Below, in pieces: positions 1 to 13,651 of a stretch of 64,000 bases of DNA. The notes under the pieces were generated by a model that was given only the letters and a program-made list of their open reading frames with translations, ran no database searches and was not told where the DNA came from. The DNA is from an uncultured candidate division Zixibacteria bacterium. Its GTDB lineage: Bacteria; Zixibacteria; MSB-5A5; UBA10806. The DNA lies in contig CAWFQL010000016.1 in assembly GCA_963817915.1 (NCBI GenBank), positions 128,171 to 192,170 on the forward strand, written 5' to 3'. The position numbers and the translations under genes are program-made. How positions within the stretch are numbered: the first letter of the stretch is position 1; the number at the start of each line of letters is the position of its first letter.

Positions 1-396
1 ACGCGGACTGCGGCGAGCACGATAGATCGCATTATCGATGTTTTCCCTTCGGTGCAGCAGCAGCAGATACGAATAATGCTGGCCGATTCAATTATCGGAG
101 TCATTTCACAACAGCTCGTCAGAAAAGCCGATAATTCCGGGCGAACTGTAGCGTTTGAGCTTCTAACGAGAGCGGCTTCCCTCTCTAATCTCATAAGAGA
201 AGCCAAGACCCATCAAATACCAACGGCGATACAAACCGGGAAAAAATTGGGAATGCAGCTACTCGATAATCATCTACGAGAGCTTATTGACAATGGGACA
301 ATAACCCCCGACGAAGCCATGCGAGTCGCTATCGATCCGGCGACCTTCAATTCATACAAAACGAGCCGAACTTCTCAGGAGTTTGTGAAAGTCTAA
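1..396 (+). CDS. pilT: Twitching-motility ATPase PilT, C-terminal fragment; the gene starts upstream of the window
   Basis: Frame 1 is open from nt 1. The translation IDRIIDVFP..QQQQIRIMLADS..TGKKLGMQLLDNHL matches the conserved PilT/PilU C-terminal region. Stop at 394-396. Confidence 0.8.
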   Translation, partial: TRTAASTIDRIIDVFPSVQQQQIRIMLADSIIGVISQQLVRKADNSGRTVAFELLTRAASLSNLIREAKTHQIPTAIQTGKKLGMQLLDNHLRELIDNGTITPDEAMRVAIDPATFNSYKTSRTSQEFVKV

Positions 397-2546
397 TGGG
401 AGCGAACACCAGAAAAATACGACTCGACGAAATCCTCATGCGTGAGGGATTTATTGATAAAAATCAAGTCGCGGAGGCGCTGCTTCGTCAAAAAGCCCAT
501 GGCGGCAAATTCGGCTCCCAGCTTCTCTATCATCGCTATATCGACGAGCCAACCCTGGTCAAAGCGCTTTCAATTCAATTCGAATGCGAAGGTATCGTGC
601 TTTCCGAAATTGAAATTCCGGATTCGGTCATTAAACTGATTCATCCGCGATTGGTGACTTCGCGAAAGATCATTCCATTCGAATATGACGCCAAGGCCAA
701 TATCCTCAAAGTGGCCTGTATTGACCCATCGGATCCGAATGTAATCAACGAAGTGAGCTTCATGGCGCCCGGCAAAAAGGTTAAATTTTATGTGGCCGCC
801 GAACTTGCAATCGAGACAGCTATCGAAAAATACTACCTTGGACGAAAAACCAAACTCGATGACAATTTGCTTATAGATATACCCGAAGTTGTTGTCGAGA
901 CAAGCGGTAAGCCGGTTCCAAACAAACAAATACAGGCACCCGATAAAGCAGGATCATCAAAATCAATTTTGATTATTACCGACGAAGAATACAATGCCTC
1001 TTTACTGCAATCCATATTTGAACGGGATAGCTATAAAGTCCATATCTGCGAAAACATTGAGAAAGCCGGCGAATACGTAGATCGAGAAAGATTTTGCGCC
1101 GTATTGATAAGAGACACATTAGAGGGCGATTTCAACAATCTGGTCGATAGAATCCGCAGAAATTCGCCTCAGACTCTAATTCAGAAATATAAGACAACAT
1201 CGTCATTGATATTGGGCGATGATGATTACGCTGGAGCCGAGGATATCCTCAAGCGCAATCTCGATCTTTTTACATCGATGCTCTCCTCAAAAGACAGTCT
1301 TCCCGAAAATCATAGCGGAATGGTCGGTCGAAATGTTGACAAGCTATGCCGCAAGCTCGGTATTCCATTGAAGGATCGCCTGACCGTGACCAATGCCGGT
1401 TATATTCACGATCTGGCCAAATATTATTACAGAGAAATCGATCCCAAGGATTACCACGCCATAATTGGATTTTCTATCAAGCTCCTGGAATCATTGGATT
1501 ATACGCCTTCGGTAATCGGAATTCTAAAAGCGATGTACAAGGACCTCAAAGGGGAATATGCCCATAATCTTCCGCTGGAAATATTAGGCGGCAATATTCT
1601 TACGATAGTCGACCTCTTCTGCGAAAATATACCATTCGATCAAAGGCTGACACTCGACAAGTTTGACGCTGTCAAGAAGAGGCTCAGAGACCTTTCGGGG
1701 AAATTATTCCTAAGCGAGGTAGTTGAAGCGTTTATCTCGATGATTCAGGAAGAGATTTTGAATATTCAGACAATCGGCAATGTCGGCCAGATAATGCTTT
1801 ATACCAATGATCCCCAGGCATCATATCCGCTCGAATTGCGATTGAAGAATGAAGGCTTCCGCAATATCACTGAAAATTCGCTGGAGGCATTCGCCGAGCT
1901 ATATCATAGATCGCGGCCTGATATTATTATTCTAAGTCTCAGGGGTGAGCCTGAAAAAATAATCGATGCTATCGATGAGCTTGCTCGCTTGGGGCTCGAA
2001 TACAAAAAGACCCCTACATTCCTGCTCGTGGATATATCTAAATCATCCAAGCTGGCGCCGCTTTTTGAAAAAGGAATCGAGGATGTTATCTCCAACGATG
2101 CCAATTATGATCTGCTGATTGTCAAAATGCGAAAGATTCAGGCCCATCTCGAAGAAGAAGCCAGACAGAGCATAGATCCGAAATCAGCCAATAATGAAGT
2201 TGTCGGGGCAAGAGGACGGCTTTCGGATATGAACCTGATCGATCTAACCCAGGCGCTTGCCCCAGGAAGACGGACCGTGAAGATAACTGTAATTAACCAG
2301 GATTCCAGTGATGATAAGCTTATAATTTATCTAAATAAAGGTAGCATTGTATTCGCCCAGCTTAATGACAAGAAAGGTCCAATGGCTATCTACGAAGGTA
2401 TGGCGTGGTCTGATGGCGCCTGGGTAGTCGAACCTATTACGCCCGATAATATTCCCGAGCCCAATAATGATCTCTCCAACGACGCTATCCTCATGGAAGG
2501 CGCCTATCAACTCGACGAAAGAGTCAGAGCCGGAAAATTAGTCTAA
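396..2546 (+). CDS. Multidomain signalling protein: N-terminal T2SSE_N/MshEN-like c-di-GMP-binding domain, receiver-like domains, HD-type domain, C-terminal DUF4388-like domain
   Basis: The ATG overlaps the pilT stop (TAATGG). The N-terminus resembles the GspE N-terminal (MshEN) fold. A central H..HS..V..LA..LG...IHDLAK segment resembles an HD/HD-GYP core. Two CheY-like segments lack the phospho-accepting Asp. The C-terminus (DLTQALAPGRRTVKITV...GSIVFAQL) resembles DUF4388. Confidence 0.55.
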   Translation: MGANTRKIRLDEILMREGFIDKNQVAEALLRQKAHGGKFGSQLLYHRYIDEPTLVKALSIQFECEGIVLSEIEIPDSVIKLIHPRLVTSRKIIPFEYDAKANILKVACIDPSDPNVINEVSFMAPGKKVKFYVAAELAIETAIEKYYLGRKTKLDDNLLIDIPEVVVETSGKPVPNKQIQAPDKAGSSKSILIITDEEYNASLLQSIFERDSYKVHICENIEKAGEYVDRERFCAVLIRDTLEGDFNNLVDRIRRNSPQTLIQKYKTTSSLILGDDDYAGAEDILKRNLDLFTSMLSSKDSLPENHSGMVGRNVDKLCRKLGIPLKDRLTVTNAGYIHDLAKYYYREIDPKDYHAIIGFSIKLLESLDYTPSVIGILKAMYKDLKGEYAHNLPLEILGGNILTIVDLFCENIPFDQRLTLDKFDAVKKRLRDLSGKLFLSEVVEAFISMIQEEILNIQTIGNVGQIMLYTNDPQASYPLELRLKNEGFRNITENSLEAFAELYHRSRPDIIILSLRGEPEKIIDAIDELARLGLEYKKTPTFLLVDISKSSKLAPLFEKGIEDVISNDANYDLLIVKMRKIQAHLEEEARQSIDPKSANNEVVGARGRLSDMNLIDLTQALAPGRRTVKITVINQDSSDDKLIIYLNKGSIVFAQLNDKKGPMAIYEGMAWSDGAWVVEPITPDNIPEPNNDLSNDAILMEGAYQLDERVRAGKLV

Positions 2547-2643
2547 ATCCGCATTTAGTTAGATTATCTCTAAATTATTTATTAATATAATACGAATCCT
2601 GGGCCTTCCGGGATGCTGAACTTGGGGAAATGGAGATTTAGCG

Positions 2644-3102
2644 GTGAGAAGAAATGATAAGGCGATAAAAGATTTTATTGAAATAGAAGATATAATCAAG
2701 CGCGCCATCGTTTGCCGCGTGGCACTGAGCGATAACAAGATTCCATATATAGTACCGGTAAATTTCGGTTATAAAAATCAAATTCTATTTTTTCACTGTG
2801 CCCGCGAAGGGAGAAAAATCGATATCATCAGGCAAAATAGCAATGTCTGTGTAGAATTCGATATCGACCACGATTTAAGTGTCACTGACACCGCTTGCGA
2901 ATGGAGTTTCAAATATCGCAGCGTTATTGGTTTTGGTAAGGCGGAAATTATTGATAACCTCGAAGAAAAAAGAGCAGCGCTTGATATTATTATGAACCAC
3001 TATTCAAATCAAAATTATCAGTATAAAGACGAAAAAATCAAAAACATCCTGATAGTAAAAATCACCTTAGATACATTAACCGGCAAGAAATCCGGGTATT
3101 GA
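2644..3102 (+). CDS. Pyridoxamine 5'-phosphate oxidase-like FMN-binding family protein
   Basis: 152 aa. Pattern R.AIVCRVAL..N..PYIVPVNF....ILFFHCA.EG.K is typical of the PNPOx split-barrel family. Confidence 0.55.
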   Translation: MRRNDKAIKDFIEIEDIIKRAIVCRVALSDNKIPYIVPVNFGYKNQILFFHCAREGRKIDIIRQNSNVCVEFDIDHDLSVTDTACEWSFKYRSVIGFGKAEIIDNLEEKRAALDIIMNHYSNQNYQYKDEKIKNILIVKITLDTLTGKKSGY

Positions 3103-3148
3103 TGACGGATTGAGAATAATTAATTTCCGCTCTCGCCCAAAAGCGCTA

Positions 3149-4102
3149 TTATTTTTTGTTCAGCAGCAGCGGATGGGCATCCGAATTTATTCCGATTATT
3201 TTGGCATCTCTGATGTCGTGGGCTAATATCACCGAAGGTCTGGCGTCGTCGAGCCCGAAGCCCCTACCGGCCAAGGTCTCTCTATAGACGATAGTATGCA
3301 GGTCGGTGAATCCCTCTGAAAACTCTATTTCTTCGCCGTCGATTGTGATAGATCGGTAGGTTCTTTTATTGTTTTCTTTTGTTTCTGCAGGCAAATCTGA
3401 TTTGTCTATCGAAAGATACCATTTCACGTTGGCATTCTCCAATTCAAGCAAACCCCCGATATGAGTAGAATCGGAAAAATGTACATCGCATTTTTGCGGT
3501 TTGCCAAAAAACCAGATTAAAAGATCGAAAAAATGAATCCCGATATTTGTCGCCAGTCCTCCCGAGCTTTCGATTTTACCTTTCCACGAAACCAAATACC
3601 AGGCGCCACGGGAAGTGATATAAGTCAGCACGACCTCTTTTTTATGGCTGCTTTTTTCCTTCCTTAGCTTTTCACGAAGAGCCACCAACGATGGATGGAC
3701 TCGCAACTGAAGGATTGTGAATATTCTATGGCCGCTTTCGCGCTCCAGTTCCTGAAGGGCATCGATATTCCAGGGATTCAACACAACCGGCTTCTCGCAA
3801 ATGGCATCGGCCTCTACCCTCAATGCGAACCTGGCGTGAGCATCGTGAAGATAATTGGGCGAGCAGATGGTCACATAATCAATCTTTTGATCTTTGTTTT
3901 GCCGTCTTAGCTTTTCGATATGTCTGTCGAATCGTTCGAACTCAGTGAAGAAACGCACATCATCAAAATAGCTATCCAGGACTCCAACGGAATCATTGGG
4001 ATCGACAGCCGCCACTAATCTATTGCCTGTTTCTTTGATTGCTTTTAAGTGTCTGGGGGCTATATAGCCGCCGACTCCAGTTAACGCGAAAATCTTTGCC
4101 AT
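3149..4102 (-). CDS. Gfo/Idh/MocA family NAD(P)-dependent oxidoreductase
   Basis: N-terminal Rossmann motif ALTGVGGYIAPRHLKAIK, then the conserved EKP motif and a C-terminal alpha/beta domain. Confidence 0.7.
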   Translation of the reverse strand: MAKIFALTGVGGYIAPRHLKAIKETGNRLVAAVDPNDSVGVLDSYFDDVRFFTEFERFDRHIEKLRRQNKDQKIDYVTICSPNYLHDAHARFALRVEADAICEKPVVLNPWNIDALQELERESGHRIFTILQLRVHPSLVALREKLRKEKSSHKKEVVLTYITSRGAWYLVSWKGKIESSGGLATNIGIHFFDLLIWFFGKPQKCDVHFSDSTHIGGLLELENANVKWYLSIDKSDLPAETKENNKRTYRSITIDGEEIEFSEGFTDLHTIVYRETLAGRGFGLDDARPSVILAHDIRDAKIIGINSDAHPLLLNKK

Positions 4103-4294
4103 TTATTTTATCCCTGCTTGTTTATCGCTCCATATTAATTTCATACGAGCTAATTATATCATCACCGGCTCGAATTCGCAAAAACTATCTCAGCATATGA
4201 ATTCCCTGATTATGCGTCTGATGGCGAGATTAGTACGCCGATAAATGCCAGAATTGCCTTGCCCGTATCTTTTCTGCGGATTATCATAAATTTG

Positions 4295-4669
4295 ATGCAT
4301 GAATTGGCGATCGCGGAATCAATTGTGAAATTCGTCCTCGAAGAGGCGGAGAAAAGGCATTTCCCCAAAATCATATCGATTAATGTCCGAATCGGCATAC
4401 TTACTGAAATCGTGCCAGATTCTTTGCAGTTTGGTTTTGAAACCATTACGAAAGAATCCCCCCTGCAGGGAGCTAATCTCAATATAGTATCGGTCCCGAT
4501 CAAGGCTGTCTGCCTGGAATGCAAGAATGAATTTGAAGTTGTCGATTTTCTATTTGTCTGTCCAAAATGCTCTTCCGGCAATATTAAGGTTCTACAGGGA
4601 AATGAAATTGAGATAACCGGTATCGAAATTGAAGATGAAGTCTACTCCAATGGAAAATCCAAAGATTGA
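4295..4669 (+). CDS. hypA: Hydrogenase nickel incorporation protein HypA
   Basis: Begins MHELAIAESIV and ends with CxxC...CPxC zinc ribbons (CLECKNEF...CPKCSS). The track ORF starts 36 nt upstream at an alternative ATG. Confidence 0.85.
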   Translation: MHELAIAESIVKFVLEEAEKRHFPKIISINVRIGILTEIVPDSLQFGFETITKESPLQGANLNIVSVPIKAVCLECKNEFEVVDFLFVCPKCSSGNIKVLQGNEIEITGIEIEDEVYSNGKSKD

Positions 4670-4695
4670 GAACTTGATGTTCTTGAGGCAATTGA

Positions 4696-5367
4696 ATGTC
4701 TGAATTAATTCCTCTCGATAAAAAAATACTTTCCGAAAACGACAGATTGGCCGCCCAAATTCGGGCAAGGCTCAATGAAAATAAAATATTAGCCTTAAAT
4801 CTGGTCAGCTCCCCCGGATCAGGGAAAACAAGCTTATTGGAAAAAACCTTAAAGGCATTGAATAAGGATTTAAGAATTGCCATTATCGCGGGAGATGTCC
4901 AAACCGAAAATGACGCCAATCGTCTGAAAAAGGCAGGCGGCAAGATTGTCAGGGCGATTGTCACGGGAAGCGCTTGTCATCTCGATGCCCGGATGATCTC
5001 AAAAGCATTAGAAGATATGGAATTAGATAAGATTGACTTGCTATTTATTGAAAATGTCGGCAATCTCGTATGCCCCTCGAATTATGATCTGGGAGAAGAT
5101 CAAAAAGTGGTGCTTATCAGTGTTACCGAGGGCGATGACAAGCCACTGAAATACCCATCAATGTTTCGCCGTTCTTCGACAATGATTATTAACAAAACGG
5201 ACCTGATAGATTATTGCGATTTCAGCATGGAAAATGTCTCTAAAAATGCGCTTCAGATCAACGCCAACCTTAATATAATATCGTTATCCTGCCGCACTGG
5301 AGATGGTCTCGACAATTGGTACTCCTGGCTGAAAACTGCTGTAGTACTTAAAAGACAATCCGACTGA
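4696..5367 (+). CDS. hypB: Hydrogenase nickel incorporation GTPase HypB
   Basis: P-loop SPGSGKTSLL and the ENVGNLVCP motif. Immediately follows hypA. Confidence 0.85.
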   Translation: MSELIPLDKKILSENDRLAAQIRARLNENKILALNLVSSPGSGKTSLLEKTLKALNKDLRIAIIAGDVQTENDANRLKKAGGKIVRAIVTGSACHLDARMISKALEDMELDKIDLLFIENVGNLVCPSNYDLGEDQKVVLISVTEGDDKPLKYPSMFRRSSTMIINKTDLIDYCDFSMENVSKNALQINANLNIISLSCRTGDGLDNWYSWLKTAVVLKRQSD

Positions 5368-5489
5368 GCTGATCACTCGATAAAATAATGGACGATTAAA
5401 GTCCATCTTGTTAGTTTGTAAAGCTATTAAACTACCCCCTAAATGGAAAAACCCCATAAAGTTTATAAAAAAGTTGTCGAAATCTATTA

Positions 5490-5525
5490 TTGTTATTGAC
5501 AATTTATGACTTTGGTCATAAAAAC
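5490..5525 (+). promoter_or_regulatory. Candidate sigma70-type promoter (TTGACA-17-TAAAAA) with an embedded palindrome ATGAC-N5-GTCAT upstream of the cytochrome operon
   Basis: ttgacaatttatgactttggtcataaaaa lies about 180 nt upstream of the decahaem cytochrome start. The palindrome overlaps the spacer in an operator-like arrangement. Confidence 0.3.
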
Positions 5526-5705
5526 GGGAATTGCATGCGATTAATGGATTAGTCGCTGCGATGCTAAAGAGGGATGAGGGGTTCTAAACAAAGGTAAAAT
5601 CTCAAAGATAAACTAATAATCTCTATAAATATGGGGAAAGCGACAGTTGAAGTGCCTAAGGTTTGTGAAAATAATAACAAATACCAGTTTAAGGACTAAA
5701 TCGTA

Positions 5706-6659
5706 ATGGACAAAACGTTAAAACTTGTCATCGGTGCGGTCACAATCCTATGCCTGTCTATTTTCTTTGCGGCATCTGCGTCTTCCAAGCAATACAGCAG
5801 ACAGGAAATGATTGAGAAATCCGCGGCTTGTTTCGATTGTCATTCGGAGCAAGTCACATCTCTGGCCGGAACGCCTCACCAAATCGGCGCCGCCACAGAT
5901 CTAAAGTCACCAGTAACGGTAGGATGTATCGGATGCCATGACGGATGGGAAAAGCATCTCGAAGGGCCGTCAACCGAGAACATCAAGAAACCATCCAACG
6001 CCAGCCAGGCTGATCAGGCCGAAATCTGCGGCCGTTGTCACGTGACAACCCATCAGCAGGCGATGGTTTCGACAGACCCTCATGTCCGAGGCAATGTCAC
6101 ATGCCTTACCTGCCATTCGATTCACGGCAACAAGACGGCCAAGCTGACAAAAGATGGCGATGATAATTATTGCGCGTCGTGTCATACTAATGTCATGCTT
6201 GAATTCAAACGCCGTTCGGCTCATCCTCTAAATTCGGGCAATATTCGCTGCACAAGCTGTCACGCTCTCTCGTCCATAAAGGACAAGACATTGGCAGTGG
6301 GCATCGACTGGACTTGCCAGAATTGCCATTCCGACAAATCGGGACCGTTCCCGTATGAGCATCCGGTGGTCAATAATCATCTGGTCAATGGCGGCGGCTG
6401 CACGGAATGTCATCAACCTCACGGCTCTAATAACGATCGTTTGTTGAACGAGCCGGATAGAAGACTTTGTCAGCAATGCCATTCGACTCCGCCCGGCCAT
6501 TTCACGAATCATGACGGTCTGGGCAGCAAGCTCGAATGTCAAAATTGTCATTCGGATATTCACGGTTCATTTGATAATAGAAAACTCCTTGATCCCAATT
6601 TGGGAACAAGGTATTTCCCGGATTGTTTCCAGTCCGGCTGTCACATATTCGGCAATTAA
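5706..6659 (+). CDS. Periplasmic decahaem c-type cytochrome (MtrA/OmaB-like)
   Basis: N-terminal signal peptide. Ten canonical CxxCH motifs plus one possible CX4CH (CFQSGCH) in 317 aa. Confidence 0.8.
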   Translation: MDKTLKLVIGAVTILCLSIFFAASASSKQYSRQEMIEKSAACFDCHSEQVTSLAGTPHQIGAATDLKSPVTVGCIGCHDGWEKHLEGPSTENIKKPSNASQADQAEICGRCHVTTHQQAMVSTDPHVRGNVTCLTCHSIHGNKTAKLTKDGDDNYCASCHTNVMLEFKRRSAHPLNSGNIRCTSCHALSSIKDKTLAVGIDWTCQNCHSDKSGPFPYEHPVVNNHLVNGGGCTECHQPHGSNNDRLLNEPDRRLCQQCHSTPPGHFTNHDGLGSKLECQNCHSDIHGSFDNRKLLDPNLGTRYFPDCFQSGCHIFGN

Positions 6660-6668
6660 GGAGGGGCG

Positions 6669-8216
6669 ATGAAAACGGTTAACAAAATCTTGATCGCCGC
6701 GATTCTGACTATTTTTACCACAAGTCTGGTATTTGCTGGTGGCAGCGGCGACCTAAAACTCGGTTATACTTATCTTTCCGATAAGGGAAATCTGGCAATG
6801 AGCCAGCCGACATTCAATGATTATAAAGGTATCGGGCTCTCTCTTGAAAATTTCAGATATCAGTGCAGCAAGGGAACGATTTTCCGCGCGGACCTGAAAA
6901 ATATCACTCTCGACAATCGCAATCTCAATCTCGGTATCGAAAAAGCGGGCCTATGGGGCCTCAACGCCAACTTGAACAAGTATCGCAGGATTTACGATTT
7001 CGAAGGTAAGGATGCGACCAAGCGCGACCAATTTGGAAGCGATCTTTGGGTAAATCTGAATAAGAGACTGAGAATATTCGGCGGATTTTCATCGATTGGA
7101 TTGAAGGGGAAAATCGACGATTCATTCAATCTCGGCGCGGATGCTCCCCGTCAGATGGAATACAGTCAAAAGAATTACAATGTCGGCGCCAGAATTAATT
7201 GCAATGGCGGCATGTTCCAGGCCGAGTATTTGAAAATAAATTACAAAGATAAAAAGATTTCCGATAGAGACCAGGACCGTCAGAATGTAAGGCTTAACGC
7301 TCTGATGCCGGTTTTGAAGAATAATCGATTGATCGCGTCCGGCGGATTCCAATCATTCGAGACAAAATACACCGCCAGCGGCTTTAAGATCAAATCGAAT
7401 ACAGTTTGGGGCGGTGGCCTTTTGAATTTGCCGCATCATTTTTCGGTTAATTATAATTTCATCTTCAATCGCGCCGGTTCCGATAGCGATATGGTCAAGA
7501 CCGACAATATCGCCAATACGGTTTATTTGAATCATGTCTGGCCAAATCTCGCCGGTTTGACAGTCGGTTATCAGAACGATATCCGCGACGATTTCGACAA
7601 GCAATTAAAATCCAATTCATATTATTTCTCCGGATGGGTTACCAAAAACCGTTGCGAATTGAGGGCAGACTACGGCTCGCGCGCCGAAGATGTAAAGAAG
7701 GGCACGAGACTGGTCGGCAACGAAGACCGCACCCGATTCAAAGTTCAGACCAAATACCGTTATACCGATGCCACCTGGCTGGGATTGTCGTACGAGGGCA
7801 AGCAACGCAAGAATGATGATATCGGAAGCAAAGCCGACTTCAATCGCTTTGGTGCTCAATGCGCCGTAAAATTTGGCGATCTGTTTAATCTCAATGGCGG
7901 CTATTTCTACGCCACCGGAAAATATAAAAATATCGAATCCGAATTCAAATTCACAGATCATGAATTATTCGGCGATATTACATTAAAAGAATTTTGCAGA
8001 TTAACACCCGGATTCGGCGCGCTTTATTATAGAAGCAAACGCGATCTTGATATTGAGCATTTCAATCTCAGATTCAGCGGCACATACAGGCTGGTCTCTG
8101 ATTTTGAATTGGAAGCGATTTACAACGTTTACAATTTCGATGATTTTCTTGTTAGCGACAGATATTATACTTCAAACATAGTTGAAATAAACTTAATTAA
8201 GGGATTTTCATTCTAA
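6669..8216 (+). CDS. Outer-membrane beta-barrel protein, putative porin component of a porin-cytochrome conduit
   Basis: Signal peptide, alternating amphipathic beta-strand pattern, terminal ...KGFSF (C-terminal Phe). Flanked by multihaem cytochromes with short intergenic gaps (9 and 16 nt). Confidence 0.55.
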   Translation: MKTVNKILIAAILTIFTTSLVFAGGSGDLKLGYTYLSDKGNLAMSQPTFNDYKGIGLSLENFRYQCSKGTIFRADLKNITLDNRNLNLGIEKAGLWGLNANLNKYRRIYDFEGKDATKRDQFGSDLWVNLNKRLRIFGGFSSIGLKGKIDDSFNLGADAPRQMEYSQKNYNVGARINCNGGMFQAEYLKINYKDKKISDRDQDRQNVRLNALMPVLKNNRLIASGGFQSFETKYTASGFKIKSNTVWGGGLLNLPHHFSVNYNFIFNRAGSDSDMVKTDNIANTVYLNHVWPNLAGLTVGYQNDIRDDFDKQLKSNSYYFSGWVTKNRCELRADYGSRAEDVKKGTRLVGNEDRTRFKVQTKYRYTDATWLGLSYEGKQRKNDDIGSKADFNRFGAQCAVKFGDLFNLNGGYFYATGKYKNIESEFKFTDHELFGDITLKEFCRLTPGFGALYYRSKRDLDIEHFNLRFSGTYRLVSDFELEAIYNVYNFDDFLVSDRYYTSNIVEINLIKGFSF

Positions 8217-8232
8217 GAAGGAGAGGGAATCT

Positions 8233-9288
8233 ATGAAGAAGATTCTACTAATCACTGCGGCCCTGGCTATCTTGCTGTTCTTGGTTTCTGGATGCGAACG
8301 GAAGGTAGTCAATCAGGCTAGCAATGACGCAAACACAACGTGTTTCATGTGCCATAACGGCGACGGCCGTATCGAGACCGCCGACGCTCAATGGCGGAAC
8401 TCACTGCACGGTTCAGGCAGATTGACATTCGACACCAACCGTTCTGGCTGCTCGGCATGCCATACTCAGCCCGGTTTTATTGAACAGGTAAATACCGGCG
8501 GAACCGCTAGCGCTCCATATGCCAATATCACGGCTATCGGATGCCATACCTGCCATATGCCGCATGAGTCTGGCAATCTTGACCTCAGGACCACAGCCGC
8601 GGTCGCGTTGCTCGATGGTTCTACATTTGACCACGGCGAGGCGAATCTTTGCGCCAGCTGCCATCATTCTCGTTTGGCAGTATCAGTTATAGCTGATGCC
8701 GGCGACAGCATTTCGCTCACAAGCAGCCGTTGGGGCCCGCATCACGGCCCGCAGGGCGACCTTATCAATGGTACTAATGCTTATGAATATGCCGGAGTCA
8801 CTTACCCGACATCGAGCCCTCACGCCGCTGCGATCACCAATGCATGCATTGGATGCCACATGGGCAGCGCAGTGATTGAAGAAGGTTACAAGGTCGGCGG
8901 TCATAGCTGGAACATGGTTGACGCGGCAGACGAATCTATTAATCTTGCTGACAATTGCGTAGCATGCCATGAAAGCATGCCTGAAGGCGCTGCAAGTTAT
9001 GACGAAATGACCGTTTCGGTTAATTGGAATGGCGCGGATACGACGGTAAATTGCCAGAGCTTCATCGTATTCCTGTCCGATTCGTTACAGACACTACTTG
9101 TCGCTGACTCTCTCTTAACCAGCAGTGGCAGCGTAATTACTCAGACGGTTGAAGCCGGCAAAGCCGGAGCAATCTATAATCTGAAATTTATCCAGGAAGA
9201 TCGTTCCGAGGGCATTCACAACTACCCATATTCATTGGCTCTCTTGACTTCAGCTATTGACTATTTGAATGATCATCCAGCACCGTAG
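8233..9288 (+). CDS. Hexahaem c-type cytochrome lipoprotein, probably cell-surface
   Basis: Lipobox LVSGC. Six CxxCH motifs. Confidence 0.75.
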   Translation: MKKILLITAALAILLFLVSGCERKVVNQASNDANTTCFMCHNGDGRIETADAQWRNSLHGSGRLTFDTNRSGCSACHTQPGFIEQVNTGGTASAPYANITAIGCHTCHMPHESGNLDLRTTAAVALLDGSTFDHGEANLCASCHHSRLAVSVIADAGDSISLTSSRWGPHHGPQGDLINGTNAYEYAGVTYPTSSPHAAAITNACIGCHMGSAVIEEGYKVGGHSWNMVDAADESINLADNCVACHESMPEGAASYDEMTVSVNWNGADTTVNCQSFIVFLSDSLQTLLVADSLLTSSGSVITQTVEAGKAGAIYNLKFIQEDRSEGIHNYPYSLALLTSAIDYLNDHPAP

Positions 9289-11500: not shown

Positions 11501-13651
11501 ATGAGAATCGTAAATAAATCTATTGTCAGGGCAATAAGAATTGTGTTTTTCGGCTTATTGCTTCTGGTTATTTTTGTTGTAAACACATTCGGACAATTCC
11601 TTGAATATTCTAATTCATCGCTATGGTCGAATGTTACTGCAATAAAAGCTTCAGGAAACTACGCATATTGTCAATTTACCGAAGGACTTGGCATACTCGA
11701 TATCTCAGATCCGGCCAATCCATCCCTCATTGGAAAATTCGCAATCCCCGGATATTCACTCGCGATCGATGTTTCGGGAAGCTATGCGTTCGTGGCGGCA
11801 TCGGACGGCTTGAGAATTTACAATGTCTATTCACCTCAGAATACTGTACTTCTATCGATATATAATGGGCATGTTTCGGTAAGGGATGTTTGTGCCAGCG
11901 GCGCTTATGCGTATTTGGCGGCGCAGGATCAATTTGAAATAGTTGATATCAGCAATCCATATTCTCCATACCGTACCGGATATATCGATCAAATTTCCGC
12001 ATCCATTGTTGCAGCTGCAGATGGCTATGCTTATATCTCAGATAATAGCCAGCCAAATTATCGCGTCAATATAATTAATGTGCAAAATGCAGCTAATCCA
12101 GATTTAATAACCCAATTTCAGGCATCGAATTTTGTTTCTGATCTGGCAGTTCAGGGTGATCGATTATATGTTTTGTTAGGCGATGCGGGCACCATGAATG
12201 GAGGCATCCAGATATTCGATATTAGCAACCCCAATAATCCAAATTCATTAGGCGAACTTGACATATTTGGATCACCACGCAATATCGAGATTGCCGGGTC
12301 TTATGCCTATATTGCAAATCTCTGGAGAGGACTCGATGTCATCGATATTTCAAATCCCGAAAGTCCAACATTGGTGGCCGAGAGAATTACTACGGCCGCA
12401 TTTGGAGTTTCGGTTTCAGGTGATTATGCATTCGTGGCCGATGAACCATTTGGAGTGATTGCATTTGATAAGAGCGATCCGCAGAACCCCGAGCAAATTG
12501 GAGGGTATCAGCCGCCGGGAGAAATTTGGAACCTGACAGTTGTAGATACACTTCTTTATGTAGCAGAACTAAATAAAGCCATGTCCATAGTGAATATCGC
12601 CGATCCGGCGCATCCGAATGTAATAGGACAACTCAGCGTTTATAATATTTGGGGCGATATCCTTGTGAATGGAGGTTATGCTTATATAAAAAACTATTCA
12701 CATCTTTTGGTAATAAATATAACTGACCCAACCAATCCATCTCTTGTCACGTCATTTTATCCTCTCGGCTGTGCCATGTGCCAGGCAATAAGAGGCAATT
12801 ATGCGTTCCTTTCAGAAGGTGATTGCTATAGTCCGAGCTTCACCGGAATGGAAATCATTGACATCACAGACCCCTCGTCCCCGATTTCAATAGGCTCGTA
12901 TGCGACCCCCGGTACGGCGATGGATTTGAAGTTAGTCGGAAATTATGCTTTTATAATATACAGATATGCCAATGAAAATCCATCAGCCGGTATGCAAGTC
13001 GTTGATATTTCTGATCTCGAAAACCCACAATTTGTTGCGGGCTATGATTTGCATTCTCCAGCATCGATGGAAATTGTCGGAAATTATGTGTTTATTGCGG
13101 ATGAAGCAAATGGGCTTAAGATTGTTGACATTTCCGATCCAGCAAATCCGACCTTTGAAGGACGCTATACGCCATATTCAGGAAATCCACAGCATGTCTC
13201 GATCAGTGGAAACTATGCGTTTCTTAGCAATAGAATTTGCCTAACAGCTGTTGACGTCTCAGATCCATCGAATCCAAGTTTCGTTGATCAATTTTGCACC
13301 CCCGGACAGCCGATGATGACAGATGTGGCAGGCCATGATATTTATCTTGCCGATAGATATGCGCTGACGGTCCTGAGATTCACCGGCAATTGCACGGGTG
13401 TATCTGGTGATGCCAATGACGACGGAGCATTCAACAGTCTTGATATCGAGTATTCCATAAATTATTTTAAGGGGTCTCAGGCGCCTCCCCCCTGTCAGTT
13501 GGATTGCTCTCCTAACGAATTGCTGTATAGCGAAGCCGATGCCAATGGCGATTGTCGTTTCAATGGATTCGATATTACTTACGGGGTAAATTATTTAAAA
13601 GGAAACGGGCCAGCACCGGAATCGTGTCCTGACTGCCATTTCTATCGATAA
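11501..13651 (+). CDS. Secreted LVIVD-repeat beta-propeller protein with C-terminal dockerin-type repeats
   Basis: Many repeats of GNYAY/GSYAF..A....GL.I.DISNP.NP. The C-terminus has two DANxDG...D calcium-binding dockerin-like repeats. Confidence 0.55.
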   Translation: MRIVNKSIVRAIRIVFFGLLLLVIFVVNTFGQFLEYSNSSLWSNVTAIKASGNYAYCQFTEGLGILDISDPANPSLIGKFAIPGYSLAIDVSGSYAFVAASDGLRIYNVYSPQNTVLLSIYNGHVSVRDVCASGAYAYLAAQDQFEIVDISNPYSPYRTGYIDQISASIVAAADGYAYISDNSQPNYRVNIINVQNAANPDLITQFQASNFVSDLAVQGDRLYVLLGDAGTMNGGIQIFDISNPNNPNSLGELDIFGSPRNIEIAGSYAYIANLWRGLDVIDISNPESPTLVAERITTAAFGVSVSGDYAFVADEPFGVIAFDKSDPQNPEQIGGYQPPGEIWNLTVVDTLLYVAELNKAMSIVNIADPAHPNVIGQLSVYNIWGDILVNGGYAYIKNYSHLLVINITDPTNPSLVTSFYPLGCAMCQAIRGNYAFLSEGDCYSPSFTGMEIIDITDPSSPISIGSYATPGTAMDLKLVGNYAFIIYRYANENPSAGMQVVDISDLENPQFVAGYDLHSPASMEIVGNYVFIADEANGLKIVDISDPANPTFEGRYTPYSGNPQHVSISGNYAFLSNRICLTAVDVSDPSNPSFVDQFCTPGQPMMTDVAGHDIYLADRYALTVLRFTGNCTGVSGDANDDGAFNSLDIEYSINYFKGSQAPPPCQLDCSPNELLYSEADANGDCRFNGFDITYGVNYLKGNGPAPESCPDCHFYR

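Follow-up and report, generated by a model that had tools for sequence, protein, structure and literature searches.

What does a signalling protein of five modules do when its gene begins on the last base of pilT, the gene of the type IV pilus (T4P) retraction ATPase? The question is raised by the first 2,546 nucleotides of a 64,000-nucleotide stretch of DNA from an uncultured Zixibacteria bacterium (assembly GCA_963817915.1, contig CAWFQL010000016.1, positions 128,171 to 192,170), hereafter called the window. The window opens inside pilT and covers only its C-terminal 131 codons. The open reading frame (ORF) that follows encodes a protein of 716 amino acids (aa). Our preferred answer, to which we attach about an even chance, is that this protein is a non-catalytic cytoplasmic signalling adaptor of the T4P motor. 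The features of the locus are the following:

1 to 396, forward strand: 3' end of pilT (last 131 codons and TAA stop; its 5' part lies outside the window, upstream)
394 to 398, forward strand: stop/start overlap TAATG (pilT TAA at 394-396, ATG of the ORF at 396-398, one base shared)
396 to 2546, forward strand: ORF of the 716-aa MshEN – REC1 – degenerate HD-GYP – pseudo-REC2 – PATAN protein (stop at 2544-2546)
396 to 869, forward strand: MshEN domain resembling the PilB N-terminus, with a four-helix MshEN_N and an MshEN_C/N1 subdomain (residues 1-158; PF05157, TIGR02538, Foldseek, profile)
420 to 578, forward strand: dinucleotide-binding motif region of 53 residues (9-61; NF053729)
957 to 1223, forward strand: REC1, an atypical receiver (residues 188-276; sub-threshold PF00072, alignment to 1ZIT, conservation, model)
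1293 to 1781, forward strand: degenerate HD domain of the HD-GYP type (residues 300-462; sub-threshold PF01966, family profile, alignment)
1782 to 2180, forward strand: REC2, a pseudo-receiver (residues 463-595; model, alignments to VicR and a REC-like chain)
2205 to 2543, forward strand: PATAN domain, also called DUF4388 or PatA_N, the presumed output domain (residues 604-716; PF14332)

The ORF is a real gene. The database holds an entry identical to the 716-aa protein, and at least 213 homologues match it over the full length with 46-55% identity; where named, these are Zixibacteria DUF4388 proteins. Its upstream neighbour belongs to the PilT/PilU family. Residues 1-113 of the fragment match positions 229-341 of the 343 of TIGR01420 (E = 5.5e-34), with a score of 117.9 bits that lies below the whole-protein cut-off of 319 since the gene is incomplete in the window. 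Full-length orthologues at related loci reach 444 bits (L001) and 463 bits (L086) with the same model. The translation of the fragment contains the PilT-type motif LSNLIREAK, and we take the protein to be PilT rather than PilU, assuming that an AIRNLIRE-like motif is the mark of PilT. A preliminary description of this DNA, made from the letters alone, had claimed that the pilT stop overlaps the next start, and the two codons do share one base. A scan for promoters and terminators gave nothing meaningful between pilT and the ORF, nor after the ORF. Among the ORFs of the window there is no other MshEN, PATAN, or PilT-like one.

The same description had proposed that an MshEN domain, an HD domain, two receiver-like domains, and DUF4388 are joined in one polypeptide. 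All five modules are supported by profile and fold searches, i.e. by Pfam and NCBIfam (Pfam gathering thresholds, GA, and NCBIfam cut-offs), by Foldseek, and by the family profile. MshEN and DUF4388 both pass GA. The former scores 41.1 bits with PF05157 (GA 23.1, residues 67-151) and also matches positions 2-146 of the PilB model TIGR02538; the latter scores 45.6 bits with PF14332 (GA 25, residues 607-709, profile positions 2-121 of 122). We built an AlphaFold2 model (mean predicted local distance difference test score of 81.6) on an alignment of 87 sequences of the family, which is also the source of all the conservation counts given below. Its domains are MshEN (1-158), a receiver-like domain with four strands (188-276), an HD domain built of helices only (300-462), a second receiver-like domain with the complete (βα)5 fold (463-595), and PATAN (604-711). 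Residues 160-186 form a disordered linker and residues 277-299 a long helix. When the model was compared with PDB structures by Foldseek, the top match was Vibrio cholerae MshE with cyclic di-GMP (c-di-GMP), 5HTL (E = 1e-7, TM(target) 0.68). Further matches were the GSPII domain of Thermus thermophilus PilF, the N-terminal domain of PilB in the PilB–PilZ complex 7LKM, receivers, and the HD-GYP protein DvhD. In line with this, the family profile matches PilB and PilF N-termini among the PDB sequences at E-values of 1e-24 to 1e-27.

Is the association with pilT conserved? We scanned one genome per GTDB species, which yielded 106 relatives. Of these, 80 were retained, and almost all come from Zixibacteria metagenome-assembled genomes (MAGs). 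We regarded pilT as linked when a homologue ended at most 300 nt upstream on the same strand. This is the case in 38 of the 77 testable species-level loci, where pilT is directly upstream. In a neighbour-joining tree, one large clade contains 37 linked loci and about 14 scattered unlinked ones, and the approximately 27 basal sequences are unlinked. The conservation next to pilT that the preliminary description had staked its proposal on is thus found in the large clade, but fails in the other 39 loci and in three loci of Myxococcota (see below). The spacing at the junction of the 37 linked loci is -4 nt in 10, -1 in 12, 0 in 9, +1 to +10 in 5, and -35 in 1. Because it lies between -4 and 0 nt in 31 of these 37 loci while the outer flanks vary between loci, we interpret the tight junctions as the probable mark of a two-gene unit that is conserved and translationally coupled.

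Many of the unlinked loci have flanking genes in common with the pilT-linked locus L003. A downstream block with an extracytoplasmic-function (ECF) sigma factor is the commonest, and several have DivIC-RecO-aminoacyl-tRNA synthetase genes directly upstream, as at L003. These common flanks suggest that pilT was gained or lost at a single site. Locus L041 has only a 58-residue N-terminal remnant of pilT upstream of the family gene (5738-5911), which suggests either that its pilT partner has decayed in this lineage or that the assembly is faulty there. An in-frame fusion with PilT was considered in L030 and excluded, as a TAA stands directly before the GTG start. One assembly (CAYQDB01) encodes two paralogues, a pilT-linked one with Arg at residue 47 (L006, 52% identity) and a divergent, unlinked one with the sequence RID in its motif and Ser at residue 47 (L084, 37% identity). 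Hence, both clades can coexist in one organism.

To describe the wider family, a profile search was run on 1.84 billion cluster representatives, with 436 matches at E ≤ 1e-30. Beyond the Zixibacteria type of about 700 aa, these include proteins of 717-842 aa with MshEN, HD_5, Response_reg, and DUF4388 that are matched as single full-length stretches, as well as short MshEN-x-PATAN proteins. In the longer relatives, HD_5 scores 78-95 bits in three proteins and 28 bits in a fourth (P0237), and Response_reg scores 84-91 bits. Their position 11 is Gly and their receiver acceptor position is Glu. P0209, P0245, and P0263 have a GYP-like loop, P0237 has none, and the HH pair of HD-GYP domains is already lost, with QY, RF, or SM instead. 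A search seeded with one such relative recovered more than 900 clusters of this architecture, which where named are Myxococcota, Polyangiaceae, or 'Deltaproteobacteria'.

In three loci of these distant relatives (L086, L092, and L093, encoding proteins with about 22-25% identity to that of the window) we found the block cyclic nucleotide (cNMP)-binding protein – pilT – MshEN/HD_5/REC/PATAN. Two other distinct loci of relatives of about 830 aa (L087/L088 and L091) lack the cNMP-binding – pilT block, so that the adjacency is found in three of five. The three Myxococcota loci that we examined have no adjacent pilT, and two of them adjoin rplM-rpsI. Hence, the adjacency to pilT recurs in two widely separated branches, but it is not universal. 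In the three distant pilT-linked loci (in L092 the stretch 1147-5891) the cNMP-binding protein has about 190 aa and precedes pilT; in L092 a 691-aa MshEN-only protein and a tetratricopeptide repeat protein also do. Two small conserved genes (approximately 190 and 95 aa) are found downstream. They have no Pfam match and could not be recognised as MglA or MglB. In the Myxococcota-like locus L089, a gene for a 1024-aa REC–PATAN protein (4749-7823, reverse strand) forms a divergent pair with the MshEN/HD_5/REC/PATAN gene, and an FHA-GAF sigma-54 activator is encoded close by.

The architecture itself is known. Wang et al. 2016 (Nat Commun 7:12481), in their Supplementary Table 4, list "MshEN–HD-GYP–REC–DUF4388" for Myxococcus xanthus MXAN_2809, and Han et al. 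2021 (bioRxiv 10.1101/2021.06.11.447907) noted that GspE_N, a domain typical of PilB, occurs in some PATAN proteins. The domain combination can therefore not be called undescribed, as it had been in the preliminary description. The Myxococcota proteins of the MXAN_2809 type have the same domain order as the Zixibacteria family and are homologous to it over the full length, as shown by profile search and alignment. The tie to MXAN_2809 itself rests on the shared architecture and on the homology to Myxococcota proteins of the same architecture. These relatives pass the Pfam thresholds for HD_5 and Response_reg, and keep DGxG[YLF]P and the canonical Gly11. In contrast, the protein of the window has lost the GYP loop by a deletion, its REC2 is far more degenerate, Asp11 and Arg47 are fixed, and its gene is translationally coupled to pilT. 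Hence, the catalogue entry and the published link between PATAN and T4P are already known. What is new, as far as we found, is the degenerate variant (GYP-deleted, with a pseudo-REC2) throughout the Zixibacteria, its fixed Asp11 and Arg47, and a coupling to pilT that recurs in a distant branch.

The link between PATAN and the pilus motor comes from cyanobacteria. The PATAN domain of PixE from Synechocystis binds PilB1 and suffices to switch the direction of phototaxis, and full-length PatA-type regulators also bind the N-terminal domain of PilC (Han et al. 2021). The same study reported MglA and MglB genes near PATAN genes. In the family studied here, 27 of the 113 columns of the PATAN domain are at least 95% conserved. 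The PatA-type regulators (PixE, PixG, LsiR, and PilG, with the order PATAN–REC) also combine PATAN with a receiver-like domain, and PATAN is their motor-contacting output. However, the order is reversed in the 716-aa protein, where PATAN is C-terminal, its MshEN and HD modules have no counterpart in PatA-type proteins, and the latter belong to chemotaxis-like systems that are not encoded beside pilT. A second precedent is given by the systems through which c-di-GMP acts on the extension motor of T4P, such as FimX–PilZ–PilB, which likewise use degenerate domains of c-di-GMP metabolism as motor adaptors; the 716-aa protein's N-terminal domain resembles the PilB N-terminus that PilZ binds in 7LKM. 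The domain families differ (GGDEF/EAL and PilZ in those systems), and they act on PilB whereas the gene studied here is coupled to pilT. The preliminary description had suggested an input to pilus retraction or polarity. The ties of PATAN to the T4P motor and to MglA neighbourhoods are in the literature; input to retraction specifically we infer from gene order alone, because the PATAN domains tested bind PilB1 and PilC, not PilT.

The adjacency to pilT could also be an accident of gene order in some lineages, with the family acting through PATAN and partners like MglA/MglB-like GTPases as a general regulator of polarity or development. This is in line with the absence of pilT within 6 kb in half of the Zixibacteria loci, many with the same ECF sigma block and several with the DivIC-RecO-aminoacyl-tRNA synthetase genes seen at L003, with the rplM-rpsI neighbours of Myxococcota relatives, and with the MglA and MglB genes near PATAN genes. 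In addition, MXAN_2809 is strongly up-regulated in the fruA and mrpC developmental mutants, according to a transcriptome paper. An accident fits poorly with junctions that overlap or abut in 31 of 37 linked loci in spite of varying flanks, and with the return of the adjacency in a clade of relatives at about 25% identity. The N-terminal domain is also specifically PilB-like. In addition, the one PATAN domain tested, that of PixE, binds PilB1, and parts of the T4P motor are bound by full-length PatA-type regulators. We therefore consider this explanation unlikely, although it deserves to be kept in mind.

What could the protein sense? MshEN is the c-di-GMP-sensing N-terminus of PilB/MshE-type ATPases (Wang et al. 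2016). The motif region of the 716-aa protein has two tandem motifs of 24 residues (9-32 and 38-61): motif I with R9-L10-D11, G18, and Q32, a spacer of five residues (KAHGG, 33-37), and motif II with K38-F39-G40, R47, L54, L58, and Q61. The numbering is exactly that of V. cholerae MshE (VcMshE). The NCBIfam model of the c-di-GMP motif, NF053729, is passed marginally (39.6 bits for a cut-off of 38, residues 9-61). This region is the best-conserved segment of the family, with a mean column conservation of 0.82 and 23 of 53 columns conserved in at least 95% of the sequences. The residues that contact the ligand are kept: R9 and L10 (86/87 each), L29, Q32, L54, and L58 (87/87 each), and Q61 (85/87). 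Position 25 is I or V and position 38 is K or R. Among the glycines, G40 is invariant and G18 is kept in 77 of 87 sequences. Two positions depart from the canonical Gly. Position 11 is Asp in 85 of 87 sequences and in all Zixibacteria loci. Position 47, at the turn between helices 3 and 4, is Arg in all 87 aligned sequences; across the loci, Arg47 is fixed in all those linked to pilT and present in a minority of the unlinked ones, and the basal unlinked clades keep the canonical Gly47.

The domain of VcMshE, PilB, and T. thermophilus PilF (GSPII) has the same fold and the same two 24-residue motifs with a 5-residue spacer, with the numbering of VcMshE. It differs in being followed by a T2SSE ATPase domain, which is missing from the Zixibacteria protein, and in having Gly in place of Asp11 and Arg47. 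In addition, K38 and F39 replace R and L, a change of which the first part has a precedent, since a Lys occupies the first motif position of the c-di-GMP-binding PilF GSPII-B (K167). In MshE, R9, Q32, Q61, and the Leu clusters contact only the ligand, and the backbone NH of the Gly at the third motif position (G11 and G40) binds guanine (Wang et al. 2016). The near-invariance of these contact residues argues for a maintained ligand site. Yet, because of the fixed non-canonical G11D, and of G47R among the members linked to pilT, the binding of a ligand is plausible but should not be taken for granted. The c-di-GMP input suggested in the preliminary description therefore stands as far as the fold and the motif model are concerned, but binding itself is not secure, with an Asp where VcMshE needs a Gly.

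It is conceivable that the MshEN domain binds no nucleotide and mimics the PilB N-terminus for docking only, e.g. on PilM, PilZ, or PilC. The protein would then be a scaffold or decoy that works independently of any messenger, with phosphorylation of REC1 as its only input, if any. The replacement of Gly11, which in VcMshE abolishes binding when changed to Leu or Ile, speaks for this, as do G47R at the helix 3/4 turn and the non-binding PilF GSPII-A with its near-consensus motif. The resemblance to the PilB N-terminal domain in 7LKM and the signature residues kept in REC1 also fit. Such a domain would not be expected to retain residues that contact nothing but the ligand, and these are near invariant (R9, Q32, Q61, and the Leu clusters), nor to pass a c-di-GMP motif model, even by a small margin. 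We thus judge the loss of nucleotide binding improbable, to the same degree as an accident of gene order.

A more speculative possibility, which we regard as less probable still, is that the fixed R-[LI]-D half-site reflects an altered ligand specificity or mode, e.g. for 3',3'-cyclic GMP-AMP (3',3'-cGAMP) or another mixed dinucleotide, in a protein that would serve as a regulatory N-domain of PilT in trans. Arg47 of the pilT clade may then be part of the same change, possibly leaving one guanine and one adenine half-site. If true, this would be the first dedicated second-messenger receptor of a T4P retraction ATPase.

The two receiver-like domains differ in what they retain. REC1 scores 25.5 bits with PF00072, below the GA of 30.2, and covers only profile positions 1-48 (residues 191-238). 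In an alignment to the NtrC4 receiver 1ZIT, its D240 falls on the acceptor Asp and its TDEE on VDDEE. These residues are conserved across the family: D196 in 86, E197 in 84, D or E at position 240 in 76, S or T at 267 in 69, followed by A268, and K or R at 287 in 70 of the 87 sequences. REC1 is therefore best described from its residues as an atypical receiver, but not as an Asp-less pseudo-receiver. The second domain has a full (βα)5 fold in the model. Its Ser514 aligns with the acceptor Asp of VicR-type receivers (A, L, V, or M elsewhere in the family), the equivalents of T87 and K109 are lost (N, L, or I at the latter), and it is the least conserved domain, with a mean column conservation of 0.52. 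All this marks REC2 as a true pseudo-receiver. Hence, the earlier statement that both CheY-like domains lack the acceptor Asp is right for REC2 and wrong for REC1, which keeps D240 and an acidic pocket.

The HD domain is recognised by Pfam below threshold only (PF01966, 17.1 bits for a GA of 22, residues 305-359; core IHDLAK with H338-D339), and the scan of the 716-aa protein gave no HD_5 match. Positions 257-446 of the family profile match the solved HD-GYP protein DvhD (9rc0, E = 5.5e-6), in agreement with Foldseek. The family profile was needed to reach an HD-GYP structure; a single-sequence search of the PDB with the HD region returned only spurious matches to designed repeat proteins. There is also a partial match, over residues 287-342, to a model of NosR-family REC/HD-GYP phosphodiesterases. 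The residues kept are H306 (84/87), H338 (87/87), D339 (79/87), and D406 (87/87). HHE is replaced by M380-Y381-K382, with M380 in 86 and Y381 in 87 of the 87 sequences in place of HH, and 65 of 87 have Arg at the position of the His that would be the fourth ligand. Relative to the HD_5-bearing relatives, a deletion of eight residues covers DGxG[YLF]P, and this GYP loop is missing family-wide. The preliminary description had asked whether the signature HD...HHExxDGxGYP is intact: the HD dyad is, the remainder is not. The order of a receiver and an HD-GYP-fold domain, and the retained H…HD…D, recall the RpfG-type phosphodiesterases (with DvhD, 9rc0/9rbz, and V-cGAP3, 5z7c, as HD-GYP structures), which differ in having the HHE and GYP signatures. 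We read the domain as a degenerate HD-GYP in which c-di-GMP hydrolysis is not expected, because the HHE and GYP elements are lost.

An active RpfG-type response-regulator phosphodiesterase that lowers c-di-GMP near the pilus motor, as the JGI names of family members (P0023, P0026, P0066, and others), the NosR-family match, the conserved H306, H338-D339, and D406, and the acidic pocket of REC1 would have it, is rejected as very improbable on the residue evidence, given the sub-threshold HD score with no HD_5 match, the M-Y-x and Arg replacements, the missing GYP loop, and the loss of HH even in HD_5-bearing relatives.

With these elements, the signalling adaptor would work as follows. The protein would be made together with PilT from one two-gene operon. 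Its input would come through the four-helix bundle of MshEN, by a cyclic dinucleotide bound in a modified way, and possibly also at REC1 (D196/E197/D240), by phosphorylation or metal binding. The degenerate HD-GYP and the pseudo-REC2 would be a conformational relay or a dimerisation scaffold instead of a phosphodiesterase, and PATAN would dock onto the motor base. We propose a bias towards retraction because the protein is co-produced with PilT: stoichiometric production could shift the shared platform from extension to retraction. The protein may do so by occupying the contacts between PilB and PilC, in competition with PilB at the PilC platform, or by giving PilT, in trans, a PilB-like N-terminal domain for docking and regulation, which PilT itself lacks. 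Either of these modes, taken by itself, is much less probable than the adaptor role in general.

Several observations weigh against the adaptor. Among the Zixibacteria loci, 39 of 77 have no pilT within about 6 kb, and neither have the three Myxococcota loci beside their family gene. Within the window there is no kinase, cyclase, or other pil gene nearby. The PATAN regulators tested by Han et al. 2021 bound neither PilT1 nor PilT2. On the side of the input, G11L, G11I, and G40I abolish c-di-GMP binding in VcMshE (Wang et al. 2016) and the family has Asp11; PilF GSPII-A is a near-consensus MshEN domain that fails to bind; and REC1, besides being sub-threshold in Pfam, has four strands followed by a long helix in the model, with no fifth strand. 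Finally, our literature search found no functional study of any member of the family, MXAN_2809 being mentioned only in the transcriptome paper cited above.

The next genes downstream of the 716-aa ORF are unrelated to pili:

2644 to 3102: PNPOx-like gene, between the 716-aa ORF and hypA/hypB
3149 to 4102, reverse strand: GFO/IDH/MocA oxidoreductase gene, also between the 716-aa ORF and hypA/hypB
4259 to 5367, forward strand: hypA and hypB, hydrogenase nickel-insertion genes, just downstream

Three consecutive genes follow on the forward strand (5706-9288). The first encodes a multihaem cytochrome c (Paired_CXXCH_1, NrfB-like, with about 10 CxxCH motifs), the second a protein of 515 aa that matches no Pfam family and has a β-barrel-like sequence, and the third a multihaem cytochrome similar to MtrC/MtrF. 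The layout is reminiscent of a porin-cytochrome module of the Mtr/Pcc type for extracellular electron transfer. Another, unrelated ORF of 716 aa is found at 11501-13651 on the forward strand, and encodes an LVIVD-repeat β-propeller with a weakly dockerin-like C-terminus. Large dockerin-bearing proteins also flank the homologous locus L001.

Some records of the family call for caution. Many of the GTDB representative MAGs that carry it (L006-L085) are titled 'uncultured Ignavibacteriales/Ignavibacteria bacterium', and a few Eisenbacteria, Calditrichota, Acidoferrum, or Deferrimicrobium. Such titles probably go back to placeholder names or mis-binning, and not to a true spread across taxa. One member of 1003 aa (P0121) has an N-terminal extension of 290 residues with no Pfam match, which may mean that the start was called wrongly or that there is an additional domain. 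A fusion with PilT was ruled out in this case, since the extension has no T2SSE match.

Zixibacteria are uncultured, and all the functional statements made here are inferred. Second-messenger control of T4P is well documented on the side of the extension motor, PilB (MshEN, FimX, and PilZ), whereas dedicated regulators of PilT are scarce. The combination of a PilB-like sensor, a PATAN domain, and translational coupling to pilT makes the 716-aa protein a concrete candidate for a regulator of the retraction motor. With Gly11 replaced by a fixed Asp and the MshEN motif otherwise strictly conserved, the family puts the strictness of the published c-di-GMP motif to a natural test. The family also provides an entry point to the uncharacterised Myxococcota family of MXAN_2809, which comes from a genetically tractable organism.

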